Source of the DNA: Pirellulales bacterium
GTDB lineage: Bacteria; Planctomycetota; Planctomycetia; Pirellulales; PALSA-1355
Reading direction: 5' to 3'
Length of the DNA: 64,000 nt
Assembly: GCA_963733035.1 (NCBI GenBank)
Contig: CAVTBU010000006.1
Coordinates: 960,001-1,024,000 of the forward strand
The translations under genes and the position numbers were made by a program. Shown here in pieces: positions 3,908-12,456 of this stretch (the first letter of the stretch is position 1; every line of letters begins with the position of its first letter). The notes beneath the pieces are model-generated. The model saw only the letters and a list, made by a program, of their open reading frames with translations, made no database searches and was not told where the DNA came from.

Positions 3908-4669
3908 ATGAAAATCGTAGTCATCGGCGGCACCGGGCTGATCGGAACCAAGCTCGTGCGTAAGCTACGGCAGCAAGGCCATGAAGTCGTGGCGGCGTCG
4001 CCCTCGTCGGGAGTCAACACCGTCACTGGCGAGGGACTGGCTGACGCGCTCGTGGGCGCGGAGGTCGTCGTCGACGTGGCAAACGCGCCGTCGTGGGAGG
4101 ACAAGGCGGTCATGGAGTTTTTCGAGACCGCAGGGCGCAACCTCCTGGCCGCGGAGGCGGCCGCCAATGTGCGGCATCACGTGGCACTGTCGGTCGTCGG
4201 CACCGACCGCCTGCTGGCGAGTGGGTACTTCCGCGCGAAGATGGCCCAGGAGGAACTGATCAAGGCTTCGGCGACGCCCTACACGATCGTCCGCTCGACG
4301 CAGTTCTTCGATTTCGTAGGGGGAATTGCCCAATCAGCAACGGACGGGCAAACCGTTCGGCTGCCGCCGGTCCTGATGCGGCCGATTGCTTCGGACGACG
4401 TTGCCGCGGTGCTGGCCGGTGTCGCAACGGCAAGACCGAAGAATGGCACGGTCGAAATTGCGGGCCCCGAATTGATCCGGATGGACGAACTGGTGCGGCG
4501 ATTCCTGGTCGCCAGCAAAGACACCCGCCAGGTGAGCACGGATCCAACAGCGCCGTATTACGGCATTCCGGTGAACGATCGAAGCCTGGTGCCTGGCAAA
4601 CGTCCGCGCGTCGGCCCGACGCGCTTCGCGGATTGGCTGGCTTCTCAGTCGCTGGCGGTGGCCCACTGA
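3908..4669 (+). CDS. NmrA-like/atypical SDR NAD(P)H-binding protein
   Basis: MKIVVIGGTGLIG Rossmann motif, GYFRAK, YTIVRSTQFF; GAGG RBS upstream. Confidence 0.85.
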   Translation: MKIVVIGGTGLIGTKLVRKLRQQGHEVVAASPSSGVNTVTGEGLADALVGAEVVVDVANAPSWEDKAVMEFFETAGRNLLAAEAAANVRHHVALSVVGTDRLLASGYFRAKMAQEELIKASATPYTIVRSTQFFDFVGGIAQSATDGQTVRLPPVLMRPIASDDVAAVLAGVATARPKNGTVEIAGPELIRMDELVRRFLVASKDTRQVSTDPTAPYYGIPVNDRSLVPGKRPRVGPTRFADWLASQSLAVAH

Positions 4670-8045: not shown

Positions 8046-8373
8046 GTGGGGCGTTGGTGAAACATGACAGTTCGTCATGCGGCACGAACGCAGCCTCTCG
8101 TAGGCCGACAAGCGTCATCAGCTTGAGGTCTTCGCCGCCCGTGACTGCGGTCGGAGGCCGCGCGTTGCGACAGTTCCGTTGTGCGGGCGGACGATCCAGC
8201 CGACACGACTTGGAAGAATTCCCAGAATGCGGCGTGTGTCACACCCCCCGCAGCTAGTATCGGCCGTCGGCAGCGTTTATACTTCTGTGCAGAGGCGCTG
8301 TAGCGGGTGGCGCACAGCTGAGCTGAATCGTTTGGCGACAACGATGGCCCAACTTGGCGTTGAGGAGGTTGGA

Positions 8374-9372
8374 ATGCTGATCTGTCGAGCCACGCGTTCC
8401 TTGGTCGCTGCCGCCGCATGCTCCGTCCATTGTTTGTTGCTGGGGGCCTCAGCCGTCACCGCCGTCTGGCCCTCTGACGCTGCCGCCGTCGGGTGGGACG
8501 GCGACGACTTTCTCATCGCCGGGGCCGGAACGGACACTATCGGCGTCTACGACAGCGACTTGACGTTTAAGGGCAACCTCGATGCGAGCTTCGACAGGGT
8601 CACCGGCCTCGACTTTGACGCTGCGGGCAACCTCGTGGCGGTGGGGCAGAATCAGCAAGTGCGGGTGTACCGAAGCGACGGCACGCTGCTCTCAAGTTTC
8701 ACCAACGCGGACCTGGGCGCTCCGTACGAACTGAAGGTCGGGCCAGCCTCCGTCGGCGGCAATTACTACGTCGGAACCCAGGATGCCAACGGGGGAACCG
8801 GCTTGCGGGAATTCAGTCCCGCAGGAGCGACGCTGCGGCAGTTCGCCAGTGGCGACTACGAGTCCGTGGCCGTGTTGCCTGACAATGTGCTTTGGGGTGG
8901 CGGCTCTTTGAGCGTGAGTGGGATCCACGCGTTCGACCTGATCTCCGGCAACCCCACCGCGACGCTGCCGATCTCCACCGTCGTGACGATGTCCTACAGC
9001 CCCGTCACCGACACGGTGCTGCTGGGCCAAAATAGCGGTTCTGGAATTGTCGAATGGCAGACCGACGGCACCTTGCTCGACTCCTTCAGCGCAGCCGGCT
9101 TCCTGGCCCGCGGCGTGACCCGCGGCCCCGGCGGTGAAGTGTTCGCCACGAGCCAGTTTGACAATGGCGTCTATCACTGGCACGCCGACGGCACTTTCGT
9201 CGGATTCACCGACCTCTCGACTAGCATCGTCGGCACGCGAAACATTGTCTGGACCGGCAACGCCATCCCCGAACCGAGCACCGCCGCACTACTGGCGCTG
9301 GGCAGCCTAATGCTCCTATGGCGTCTGCCCCGCCAGGGAGCAGGAGCGTTTCTGTCCAGCTTACGGAGGTAA
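8374..9372 (+). CDS. PEP-CTERM protein with NHL/beta-propeller-like body
   Basis: GAGGAGG RBS, signal peptide, repeated G-x-x-x-D propeller-like units, C-terminal IPEPSTAALLALG + basic tail. Confidence 0.85.
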   Translation: MLICRATRSLVAAAACSVHCLLLGASAVTAVWPSDAAAVGWDGDDFLIAGAGTDTIGVYDSDLTFKGNLDASFDRVTGLDFDAAGNLVAVGQNQQVRVYRSDGTLLSSFTNADLGAPYELKVGPASVGGNYYVGTQDANGGTGLREFSPAGATLRQFASGDYESVAVLPDNVLWGGGSLSVSGIHAFDLISGNPTATLPISTVVTMSYSPVTDTVLLGQNSGSGIVEWQTDGTLLDSFSAAGFLARGVTRGPGGEVFATSQFDNGVYHWHADGTFVGFTDLSTSIVGTRNIVWTGNAIPEPSTAALLALGSLMLLWRLPRQGAGAFLSSLRR

Positions 9373-9453
9373 TGATGACGCTGTATTTGCCCTCCCTCCG
9401 ATTGGACATCGTAGGTCTTCGGACCTAACGTCGGTCACATCGACGAATGGCAC

Positions 9454-10874
9454 TTAGATGTTGATAAGGCCTTTGGCCATCAGGCGTTTGACTTCGGTGC
9501 GTGGCTTGGTCAGCCAGCCGTAGTGGTTGCGTCGGTGCTTTTTCACTCGGGGCTCGAAGCGGTCTGGCCGATCAGCGACTTGATGCGTGGCGACGGCGTC
9601 AAGCAATTGTTCGTAGATAGCCCTGCGGTGCGGTACGCTGCGTTCGCCTTGTAGAGCGATCAATGGCTGGAACGCCTCCAAGGTCTGAATCGTCCCCTTG
9701 AAGCTGATGGACCGCGGCTGAATATCGTGCCTGCTCGCTGCCTGCGCGATGATCGTGCGGATGAGGTTGTACGCCAGGATATGCGTCCAGATCTCTTTGC
9801 GCACCAGTTCGGGGGTCCTGCAGCGCAAGTCACGCATTTGCATCGTCGACTTGATGGAACGTAGATCGAGCTCATTGTTCCAACGAGCGCGGTACAGCAT
9901 CGCCAGATCCTCCTTGGTGGTTTGCCGCGGGTCCAGCAACGTCGTCACCACCACAATTGACTTGGTCCGGAACCCTGGTTGCGCAACTCGAATTCTCGCT
10001 TCTCGAACGGTGATGTATTCTGGGAGCGATTTGTAAGTGGTCCAGTCCAGAGAACGAATCGAGGTGGGCTTGAACCAGCGGACAAGGTGGTCACTATCGC
10101 CAAGGCGCTTTCCACGCCGAAAGTCCGATTTGCGATTGGCCTTGTTCAGGCGACTGACCAATTCAACGCCGCGTTGCTGGACCACAAAATGTTCGCCCAA
10201 TTGGCCATCAGGCGATCGGTGAGCAACACATCTCCGGGACAAAATGTGTCCCACAATCGGCGGAGCAAGCTGACTTCGCCCTCACCTTTGCCAGCGTACC
10301 GGCAGATTCCAAGATTGATGATCGCCCCGCATGATAGAGACGTGATGGCCCCGATCCGTGCAATCGGGAAGCCGAGCCCTGGCTTCTGATTGTAGACCTG
10401 TGGATAGGCTTGTTGATTCTCTGGAGTATCCGGCATGGTGACCGTCGTGCCATCGAACATGTAGACTCGCCGCCCTTTCCACAGCCAGCGGCGATCGGCT
10501 TTGGCCTCCAATGCGCGACCCACCAAGCAAGCCACCGTCGAGAAGAACTGTTCCGGTAACCGTTTTCTTGCCTGGCAGTACGCACCCGTTTCGGCTGAGC
10601 ACGGACTCTGTCCTTGCGACACACGATGCGCGATCAACCGGGCAACGGCCGCGCGGCACGACGCGTCGGCGCTCAGGACCTGGCCCAAGAAGACCCACAA
10701 CGTGACCAGCGGCGAATAGATCCTGTCGGTCCAGCACACGCCAACCGCTGTCAATGCTTGCGCGACAATTCCTTCAGAGTGCACATCACCGAATGGCAGG
10801 TCCCCGTCTTGAAGAAACTGCCGCCGCAGGAATCTCACCTGTTGCCGAAATCGTCCGCCGCTAGAATAGCGCAT
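9454..10874 (-). CDS. IS4-family DDE transposase (frameshift near 10185)
   Basis: ORFs 10146..10925 and 9454..10254 give FDGTTVTMPDT, LLTDR and the YRARWNNELDLRSIK (YREK-type) motif. GGAGG RBS before ATG 10874. Confidence 0.9.
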
Positions 10875-10879
10875 CCTTG

Positions 10880-10938
10880 GCCTCCTTGCCGTTGATGGAT
10901 GTGTTGCCAAACACCATCTACGCAAGCGAGGCTTTTTT
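10880..10938. promoter_or_regulatory. Long hairpin sequestering the transposase RBS; hairpin + T6 terminator on the + strand
   Basis: gcctccttgccgttgatgg...ccatctacgcaagcgaggc followed by tttttt. One arm contains the transposase Shine-Dalgarno on the minus strand. Confidence 0.65.
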
Positions 10939-10980
10939 GCCTATTGCAAAAGGTCACATTCCGTACCGCCTGGAAAGAAC

Positions 10981-11370
10981 TCACAGTGGGGCATAAAGCT
11001 CAGGATGAGCTGCCAAGTGACGCTGGAATATCTGCACAAGCGTTTGATCGTCCGGAACGTGAACCGCGTATTCCTCATCGACTTCTTTTTCAACACTGTC
11101 AACCTGCGGTCTAGTCTCGATCAGGGTTCGAGCCCGAATGAACAGATCTGCAACGGCATCGAGCCCGTAATACCGATAAGCACGAAGCGCCTCCTCCATT
11201 TCACCGTGGCTCAGTACGTCGAATGGATGAAATACGCCTCCATTCATTGTCAAGCCATGCAACGAAAGAAGCGCGCGCAGTGCGAGATCGCCCTCGTAAC
11301 CGGCGGTACCTGGGCCCTGGTTGGGTTCACAGGCCCGATTCCAGATCTTGTCCGCGAAAGAAAGCTCCGT
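10981..11370 (-). CDS. IS passenger gene: small acidic helical protein, possibly DMP19/DUF4375-like
   Basis: The open frame extends 36 codons upstream of the ORF-track start to an ACG codon preceded by GGAGG: (M)ELSFADKIWNRAC...GDLALRALLSLHGLTMNGGVFH...YRYYGL. The family guess rests on the NGG motif and acidic helices. Confidence 0.65.
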   Translation of the reverse strand, partial: TELSFADKIWNRACEPNQGPGTAGYEGDLALRALLSLHGLTMNGGVFHPFDVLSHGEMEEALRAYRYYGLDAVADLFIRARTLIETRPQVDSVEKEVDEEYAVHVPDDQTLVQIFQRHLAAHPELYAPL

Positions 11371-11895
11371 AGCGTCCTCCCTCAGTCGCGTTGGAATACT
11401 GCATCACCGGCGTCCTTGCCGCTTCTGGATGTCTTTAGCATACGCTCAACTACTCACGCGTTGGCCTTTTGCGTATGTCAGTCTGAGCCAATATCTTACC
11501 AAAGAACTACGTGCCATTCGTCACATCGACCCATGCAGATTGGTGATGATCGGGTATTTAATGTGAATTTTCGAAATGCGCGCGGCGAAGGGAATCGAAT
11601 CGTCATGGCAGTGTCGATCGTTGGAATTCAAATTGAGCGAATCTAGGACAATGCGCGTGTAGCTCACATCGACCACGAGTCGCAGCCTGCTTGGGTGCAT
11701 CGGTACTCCAGTCCGATGCGTTGAAATCGCCGCGACGTTGCTCAGGAGGGCGTGACCTGTGCACGCGGAGGGCTGGCCGCACAGTGTTCGGGTCGACATG
11801 CCGACGTGCCTTCGAAAGATCTGTGAAAGCCGCTTGCTTGCTGCCGCTTGCAGCGCGTACAGTAAAGCGGACCGCCCAACTCGGAGTAGACTCGC

Positions 11896-12456
11896 ATGGG
11901 ACTTCTGACCTTCAGCCTCAACGTCACCCTGGACGGCTGCGTCGACCACCAGGAGGGAATCGCCGACGATGAGACGCACGCCTTCTTCACCCGCCTCATG
12001 GACGAGGGCGGGGCGATGCTGTGGGGCCGCGTCACCTACGAGATGATGGAGAGCTACTGGCCGTCGGTCGCCCGTGGTGACGAGGAGGCGCCGCCGTCGA
12101 TGCGCGAGTGGGCGGTCAAACTGGAGGCCAAGCCGAAGTACGTCGTTTCGTCGACGCGAACGGACTTTCCGTGGACCAACAGTCACCACATCGCCGGCGA
12201 CTTGCGCACGAGCGTGCAGAAGCTCAAGGATTCGACCCCTGCCGGCGTGCTCCTCGGCAGCGGCAAGCTTGCGACCGAGCTGGACCGGCTGGATCTGATC
12301 GACGAATACAAGTTCCTCGTTCACCCCAGGATCGCCGGCCATGGCCCGACCCTGTACCAGAGCGGGCTGCCCAGCACGCGACGGCTTGAGCTGGTCTCGG
12401 CGAAGCCGCTCAGCAACGGCGCGGTCGCCATGCACTACGGGCGTGCACGCGGCTAA
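11896..12456 (+). CDS. Dihydrofolate reductase family (RibD C-terminal/deaminase-reductase) protein
   Basis: NVTLDGCVDH, GRVTYEMM, GSGKLA, LIDEYKFLVHPRIAGHG motifs; GGAG RBS. Confidence 0.9.
   Translation: MGLLTFSLNVTLDGCVDHQEGIADDETHAFFTRLMDEGGAMLWGRVTYEMMESYWPSVARGDEEAPPSMREWAVKLEAKPKYVVSSTRTDFPWTNSHHIAGDLRTSVQKLKDSTPAGVLLGSGKLATELDRLDLIDEYKFLVHPRIAGHGPTLYQSGLPSTRRLELVSAKPLSNGAVAMHYGRARG

Follow-up and report, generated by a model that had tools for sequence, protein, structure and literature searches.

Insertion sequences (ISs) of the IS231 subgroup include many elements in which extra DNA and passenger genes separate the left repeat from the transposase gene, and the part of the account by De Palmenaer et al. 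(2008) that deals with this layout states that no other IS4 subgroup had so far shown it (PMC2266710). Passages of a second account describe the MIC231 cassettes (MIC, mobile insertion cassette), which are mobilized in trans and have in common a conserved region by the left repeat (PMC6199540), and a third, in the section concerned, names ISs with passenger genes as a class, the transporter ISs (tISs; PMC3129680). Nothing specific on a doubled leader in IS4-family elements was found in the literature outside the primary IS231 papers. Here we describe an IS4-family element of 2075 bp, located on the minus strand at positions 9445-11519 of a 64-kb stretch of Pirellulales bacterium DNA (contig CAVTBU010000006.1, positions 960,001 to 1,024,000; hereafter, the window), which carries a gene unrelated to transposition (the cargo) between two diverged copies of its transposase leader. 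A sequence-only reading of the window had put the element forward as its best candidate for an undescribed gene-capture system. Our results suggest that it is probably a single transporter IS copy, IS4-subgroup-like and decaying, that constitutes a one-off among the relatives sampled and not a system.

Structure and coding content of the element

The element is bounded by inverted repeats of the form GAATGGCAC(N)TAG. GAATGGCACNTAG occurs exactly twice in the window, at 9445-9457 (plus strand) and 11507-11519 (minus strand), i.e., at the two ends of the element and in inverted orientation, and the repeat arms extend to 21 nt with 86% complementarity. The 11-mer GTCACATCGAC likewise has two exact copies in the window, at 9434-9444 and 11520-11530, each of which directly abuts a repeat from the outside as expected for a target-site duplication. 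Since both motifs were exact and present twice, the terminal repeats, perfect 11-bp duplication and 2075-bp length given in the sequence-only reading were confirmed. At the right end, the inverted repeat and subterminal region (9445-9478; GAATGGCACTTAG on the plus strand, an exact match) also correspond to positions 1-35 of a profile of transposase leaders (nhmmer, E = 0.005). The outer left end (11391-11519, minus strand), which was delimited with the same profile, consists of the inverted repeat (11507-11519), a conserved subterminal region of 38 nt and a decayed leader that lacks a hairpin. The predicted sequence of the empty site is ACGTCGGTCACATCGACCCATGC.

The transposase gene is read in two frames, both on the minus strand. 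The first 231 codons (10182-10874; ATG at 10874-10872) match NF033592 at profile positions 11-184 (100.6 bits), and codons 233-473 (9454-10179), whose TAA stop lies inside the right repeat, match the same profile at positions 196-331 (85 bits) as well as PF01609 (42.6 bits vs. a cut-off of 23). Each half falls below the 115-bit cut-off of NF033592 because the gene is split. The C-terminal frame also contains YRARWNNELDLRSIK, a YREK signature (Y-x2-R-x3-E-x6-K) whose spacing of Y-2-R-3-E-6-K we take to be the canonical one. Judged by its sequence, the protein is thus an IS4-type DDE transposase, and the NF033592 and PF01609 matches agree with the family assignment made earlier. The first half is 92% identical to residues 1-231 and the second half 84% identical to residues 232-473 of an intact, 473-aa homolog (P0141). 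Comparison with P0141 and with the DNA of eight relatives showed that the frame break (10180-10182, minus strand) consists of one base missing from codon 232, where the window reads TGG-TC-CAG and the relatives read TGG/CTG CTC CAA/AAG with a full CTC or CTT (n = 8). A programmed frameshift at this codon was rejected, since intact homologs of 471-473 aa are encoded in a single frame, there is no slippery run, and the relatives' DNA has one base more at codon 232. Three full-length homologs among the closest (P0139, P0140, and P0142; 91% identity) are encoded on contigs of 1589-1644 nt, which leave no room for a cargo.

The cargo open reading frame (ORF; 10981-11370, minus strand) comprises 129 codons and a TGA stop, and is probably DMP19-like (PF14300), to judge from its homologs, from Pfam and from a structure model. 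Close homologs are 127-129 aa long with 65-80% identity, and all invariant residues of the family are retained in the window protein. The first codon is ACG (11370-11368), at which all close homologs begin with ATG (MELS..., as against TELS... in the window), and it is preceded at a distance of 4 nt by GGGAGGA (11375-11381, minus strand), a Shine-Dalgarno-like sequence of the cargo's own. The frame is open over 140 codons, and no in-frame ATG, GTG or TTG was found upstream of the ACG. Neither this start codon nor the frame break of the transposase had been noted in the sequence-only reading. The sequence-only reading had suggested that the cargo might be expressed from the recycled transposase leader; this finds no support, as the cargo has its own Shine-Dalgarno sequence and, in this copy, an ACG start, and a consensus scan found no promoter in the outer leader.

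PF14300 scored 22.8 bits on the window protein (cut-off, 25; E = 1.5e-4) and matched 14 of 14 aligned members of the cargo family (E ≤ 0.01, best 2.3e-7), and 30 of 30 atlas neighbors were PF14300 clusters. An AlphaFold model of the protein was all-helical, with a predicted local distance difference test (pLDDT) score of 85, and its top match in the PDB was DMP19 (3wur_A; template modeling [TM] score 0.50, probability 0.80, Foldseek E = 1.1). A search of solved structures by sequence with the cargo-family profile gave no match. The protein is acidic, with an isoelectric point (pI) of 4.8. The cargo therefore resembles DMP19 of Neisseria meningitidis in family, in its all-helical model and in its acidity, but differs in its sub-cut-off Pfam score and in a Foldseek E of 1.1, and DNA mimicry has been demonstrated solely for the Neisseria protein, according to the relevant portions of two accounts (PMC3384305, PMC5722371). 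The cargo family numbered 590 clusters at E ≤ 1e-3 and only two at E ≤ 1e-30 among 1.84 billion representatives, and no homolog was found in the plasmid collection. The G+C content at third codon positions (GC3) was 0.54 for the cargo, 0.67-0.70 for the transposase and 0.76-0.88 for the neighboring host genes. These differences suggest that cargo and IS have separate histories and that both are foreign to the site.

The doubled transposase leader

The minus strand was reported in the sequence-only reading to carry the transposase leader twice, and our alignments bear this out. The two copies lie 530 bp apart, with an inverted repeat in the outer copy only. Local alignment of the outer and inner copies extended over 83 columns with a score of 29, as compared with 8.2 ± 1.3 for 1000 dinucleotide shuffles and 8.0 ± 1.3 for 1000 random pieces of the window, and the observed score was reached by 0 of 1000 in either control. 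The copies also form a direct repeat of 47 nt with 74% identity at a spacing of 530 bp. Using a profile (nhmmer) built solely from 50 distinct leaders of relatives, we recovered the outer copy at 11519-11391, over model positions 1-129 (E = 4.9e-16). The inner copy was hit at 10949-10862, over model positions 39-128 (E = 1.9e-21). A chance likeness between the two copies is therefore ruled out by the shuffles, the random pieces and the relatives' profile. Taken with the cargo homologs and PF14300, the profile also upholds the view that a gene unrelated to transposition lies between two leader copies of the left end.

Of the inner copy, the part that can be relied upon (10875-10949, minus strand; profile E = 1.9e-21) has no inverted repeat. 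Between the stop codon of the cargo and this reliable homology lies a stretch of 31 nt (10950-10980, minus strand) that was not aligned by the profile. It may correspond to leader positions 12-38, considering its AGTTCTT and GGAATGTGAC motifs, and its length is approximately that expected. However, when 10944-10995 was compared with positions 1-50 of the relatives' leaders, 30 of 300 shuffles equaled or exceeded the observed similarity, which is not above chance. The inner copy had been described as starting with AGTTCTTT (10981), right where the cargo's stop codon lies, with its terminal bases lost. Absence of the inverted repeat held true, while the precise starting point found no statistical support; truncation at that very codon is plausible, with dependable homology from 10949 onward. 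MAFFT had set GGAATGTGAC of the inner copy against the terminal repeat, a pairing that was discarded as wrong, since relatives carry the motif internally, as GAA(A/T)TGACATAGG.

The two copies have diverged to very different degrees. Across positions 39-128, the inner leader shares 85-89% identity with its nearest relatives; for the outer leader, the highest value with any relative is 70%, and with the inner copy it is 67%. At positions 1-38, the outer leader retains 76-82% identity to relatives, and against the consensus it has 76% identity over positions 1-38 and 69% over 39-128. This pattern suggests that the portion of the outer left end needed for transposition was kept while the remainder drifted. 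The outer copy retains, as stated in the earlier reading, the terminal repeat and five transposase-like codons. These open a remnant reading frame, MQYSNATEGGRYGAFFRGQDLESGL* (11327-11404, minus strand), which extends across the start of the cargo in a different frame and whose likeness to the transposase start is confined to those first five codons (MQYSN vs. MRYSS).

In the inner leader, a hairpin was predicted at 10880-10932, in which GGCCUC..CUUGC pairs with GGCAAGGAGGCC, the strand that holds the ribosome-binding site (10879-10890). The predicted fold has a free energy of -31.6 kcal/mol (z = -3.2), its base pairs are predicted in 19 aligned leaders, and compensatory changes occur in three of them (e.g., L032 and L035). 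The hairpin would be comparable to the fold-back control known from IS10 and IS50. It is gone from the outer leader (-19.5 kcal/mol, z = 0), where AAGGACG stands at the ribosome-binding site.

Related elements and their targets

To place the element among its relatives, genomes were scanned with the N-terminal half of the transposase. The scan yielded 460 confirmed relatives, and the best 80 of the 460 loci, from one genome per species, were analyzed. They share 60-86% identity and derive almost entirely from Planctomycetota. Of 57 definable end pairs, 56 were 1529-1593 bp long (about 1545) and one was 2538 bp. Considering that the element in the window measures 2075 bp, it amounts to a normal copy plus ~530 bp. 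A perfect 11-bp duplication flanked 33 of the 57 end pairs, and in two the flank was too short to judge. Leaders of the relatives were mostly 112-116 nt long. Leaders of 153-163 nt were found in seven loci (L026, L034, L039, L040, L043, L045, and L053) and contain an insertion of ~47 nt with a small palindrome (TAAGCA.CGCTATCGC..CATTGCTT).

A search with tblastn found the cargo in none of the 80 loci, so that it is not a standard accessory gene of this IS group. The leader profile likewise found two same-strand leaders ahead of one transposase in none of the 80, and none of the 57 end pairs held extra DNA other than IS sequence. Two long leader hits were obtained in seven loci, and these proved to be second IS copies on the opposite strand (L015 and L022), weak reverse-strand self-hits of the hairpin (L025, L053, L061, and L074) or a hit at a separate ORF (L050). 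In the latter locus, the leader-like sequence (4526-4616; profile positions 27-113, with the hairpin motif of the ribosome-binding site) stands 100 nt past the right end of the IS and ahead of another ORF (MKIVESAQKC...). Longer relatives were rejected as cargo carriers. Both L001 (2887-5424, 2538 bp) and L021 (1342-4431, 3090 bp) contain nested ISs, with proteins of the DUF4096/DDE_Tnp_1 and DUF772/DDE_Tnp_1 types, and retain an intact outer 11-bp duplication; a gap in L078 is alike. At the other extreme, L038 holds a gene-less miniature derivative of 230 bp (1539-1768) with both inverted repeats and a perfect 11-bp duplication, GACGATGCCAC, indicating that the ends by themselves are mobilized in this IS group. 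Since the sequence-only reading had itself reserved the term system for cases with other cargo-bearing copies, their absence from the 80 loci points to a one-off on the data available.

Target-site duplications of the group fit the motif G-T-(G/C)-N5-(G/C)-A-C, and the wider flanks form a palindrome, CGTCGGT-N7-ACCGACG, both in the window (9429-9449 and 11515-11536) and at loci including L071. The exact 11-mer of the window, GTCACATCGAC, was also found at independent insertions, on both sides of L013 and L048 and on the left of L037 and L059, and its reverse complement occurs at L029 and L009. Because a preferred target is evidently reused, identical flanking 11-mers are weaker proof that the element moved as a unit, and they leave room for assembly in place. 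The flanks do fit movement of all 2075 bp together, as claimed in the sequence-only reading, and duplication of 11 bp is the norm in the group (33 of 57), so that movement as a unit may be deduced from the flanking duplication.

In the window, CGGTN7ACCG had five matches vs. 1.85 expected, and the specific target motif, with up to two mismatches, had six vs. 2.3 expected; a repeated host element resembling repetitive extragenic palindromes (REP) was unsupported there as the target. At five loci (L037, L059, L010, L035, and L009), the two flanks are reverse complements of each other and not direct repeats, as expected for inversion by recombination between two opposite-oriented copies at like targets. 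The element is flanked on one side by an ORF at 8179-9372, which has no Pfam match at E ≤ 0.001 and ends in a tail, PEPSTAALLALGSLMLLWRLPRQ, that is presumably PEP-CTERM-like, and on the other by a RibD_C gene at 11896-12456. An Rfam scan of 9300-11700 matched no family.

Origin, alternative explanations and comparison with known systems

Along the minus strand, the element is arranged as outer left end, cargo with its own ribosome-binding site, repeat-less inner leader, transposase of 473 codons and right repeat. As we envisage it, the transposase would bind the two repeats present (outer left and right) and move all that lies between them. Since repeats are found solely at the outermost ends, cutting can take place there only, and the cargo is locked in. 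The whole 2075 bp would have been inserted by cut-and-paste into the group's preferred palindromic target. Translation of the transposase would still be governed by the inner leader, and expression of the cargo would depend on its own ribosome-binding site together with some promoter or read-through. Since the inner leader and the transposase are close to those of cargo-less relatives and the outer leader is diverged, we infer that a left-end fragment, older or diverged, lay ahead of the cargo gene and that a young, ordinary IS became joined to it. Two illegitimate junctions would have been needed, one just before the ribosome-binding site of the cargo and the other at its stop codon, where CAC.GT.AGTTC is a possible microhomology.

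The copy in the window is defective and non-autonomous, and any further movement would need transposase supplied in trans. Its cargo is probably silent. The deletion in the transposase gene and the ACG codon of the cargo look recent, or look like assembly errors, because the invariant cargo residues have been kept and the transposase is otherwise intact.

Several points weigh against a one-off transporter IS. The order of events in the proposed origin is a reconstruction, and the single-base deletion and the ACG could both be errors of assembly. The matching 11-mers are less telling than they would be for an IS with random targets, and the sample comprised the best 80 of 460 relatives. An old cargo-bearing unit with undetected relatives could also explain why the outer leader is so strongly decayed. 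In addition, several of the 17 cargo homologs are on contigs of 1.8-2.1 kb, a length close to that of an element of this kind, and one cargo homolog (P0012, 47% identity) and one transposase homolog (P0239, 79% identity) are on contigs of 2812 nt with equal source labels. By a rough estimate from the listed sizes, ~0.7 coincidences of this kind would be expected overall by chance, and the 2812-nt match is no more than chance allows.

The best of the alternatives, although unlikely, is that the outer copy goes back to an old internal duplication of the leader and not to a sister IS. One event of aberrant repair or template switching would have produced it together with filler DNA, and it would have diverged since. 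The nearest sequences to the outer copy are L076, L011/L013 and L052, with the inner copy next as fifth of 51, while those nearest to the inner copy (L052, L037, L029, and L011/L013) belong to the same subgroup, and both leader copies have ACATCCA in the hairpin loop region. However, the outer copy is 67% identical to the inner, which is itself 85-89% identical to cargo-less relatives, and the transposase is 84-92% identical to intact, apparently cargo-less homologs. From these identities, the inner part seems young and the outer one old.

We consider it quite unlikely that the element belongs to a recurrent gene-capture lineage, in which a slot between two left ends takes varied genes, with the recycled leader driving their expression. 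Such a lineage would account for an outer leader that is far from every functional leader and yet conserved over positions 1-38, as would fit a long mobile life. The cargo homologs with 65-80% identity are on short contigs (1.8-7 kb), the coincidence of P0012 and P0239 would also fit, and IS231 relatives bear varied passenger genes in the same position, as far as parts of two accounts describe them (PMC2266710, PMC6199540). On the other hand, the three surveys described above (cargo, 0/80; doubled same-strand leader, 0/80; non-IS extra DNA, 0/57) were all negative. The 2812-nt case aside, the contig sizes of cargo homologs are unmatched among 240 listed transposase homologs, including those of 89-92% identity on contigs of 2071-2210 nt. 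The cargo has just two close clusters (E ≤ 1e-30) in the 1.84 billion representatives, the outer leader has no promoter match, and the cargo starts with ACG.

Assembly in place appears very unlikely. Under this explanation, two related ISs inserted separately at two nearby GTCACATCGAC targets flanking a resident gene, and later deletions left little of the upstream copy and eliminated the inner repeat, in which case the two 11-mers would not be one duplication. The palindromic target, the exact GTCACATCGAC copies that flank independent insertions in other genomes and a one-mismatch copy of the 11-mer, CTCACATCGAC, at 11663-11673, 143 bp from the insertion site, are compatible with such a course. 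However, the GC3 of the cargo (0.54 vs. 0.76-0.88 in host neighbors) indicates that it is not a resident gene and was brought in, GTCACATCGAC is scarce in the window, with both exact copies at the element, and two insertions and two deletions would be required at one spot. Finally, we regard as highly improbable a Planctomycetota lineage of the IS4 subgroup with acidic DMP19-like genes as standing cargo behind a sacrificed left-end copy, in which, were it real, diverged cargo alleles would fill the slot in different genomes (with P0012 and P0239 as the lead) and the cargo would aid the element, e.g., by titrating DNA-binding nucleoid or defense proteins.

In compound transposons such as Tn5 and Tn10, the outermost ends of two IS-derived sequences flanking a gene move the whole as a unit. 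Both transposons are mentioned in part of one of the accounts consulted (PMC6199540). The element in the window differs in that it has just 129 nt of a second IS, in direct orientation and without an inner end, and thus falls outside this type. With the published table for the IS4 subgroup (1400-1650 bp, -AATR- ends, 10-13-bp repeats and YREK; PMC2266710), its relatives agree, whereas the window copy itself is 2075 bp long owing to the cargo module and fits the WTW positions of the end consensus loosely. As a non-transposition gene inside IS repeats, it does not differ in kind from the transporter ISs, to which it belongs on the portion of the description available (PMC3129680).

The closest likeness is to IS231 and MIC231 of the Bacillus cereus group, which, on the general published accounts used here, share with it the transposase family, the position of the passenger, a conserved left-end region ahead of the passenger and the mobilization of derivatives via IS ends. 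The element is not a MIC, however, since MICs, as described in those passages, lack the transposase gene, which is present, though broken, in the window. Nor does it fall within the IS231 subgroup, whose ends are given there as CAT-------AA--TAA, as opposed to GAATGGCAC in the window element. The group to which it belongs is further set apart by GAATG ends, Planctomycetota hosts and a palindromic target within which 11 bp are duplicated, and the element itself by a second, repeat-less leader ahead of the transposase, a comparison for which IS231 is represented by those general accounts only.

The proposal of an undescribed system was thus not sustained, given the absence of cargo and doubled leader from the 80 loci, the layout published for IS231 in part of one account (PMC2266710) and the named tIS class in part of another (PMC3129680). 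A single defective copy carries little further weight unless cargo-bearing sister copies appear. The survey also documents a widespread planctomycete IS group that strictly duplicates 11 bp, prefers a palindromic target and has a conserved hairpin over the ribosome-binding site of the transposase. The layout is already known from modular elements of the IS231 type, and the element in the window is not a new system; it is a compact example of an IS turning into a gene-carrying transposon, outside the Bacillus IS231 group in which the layout was first described.

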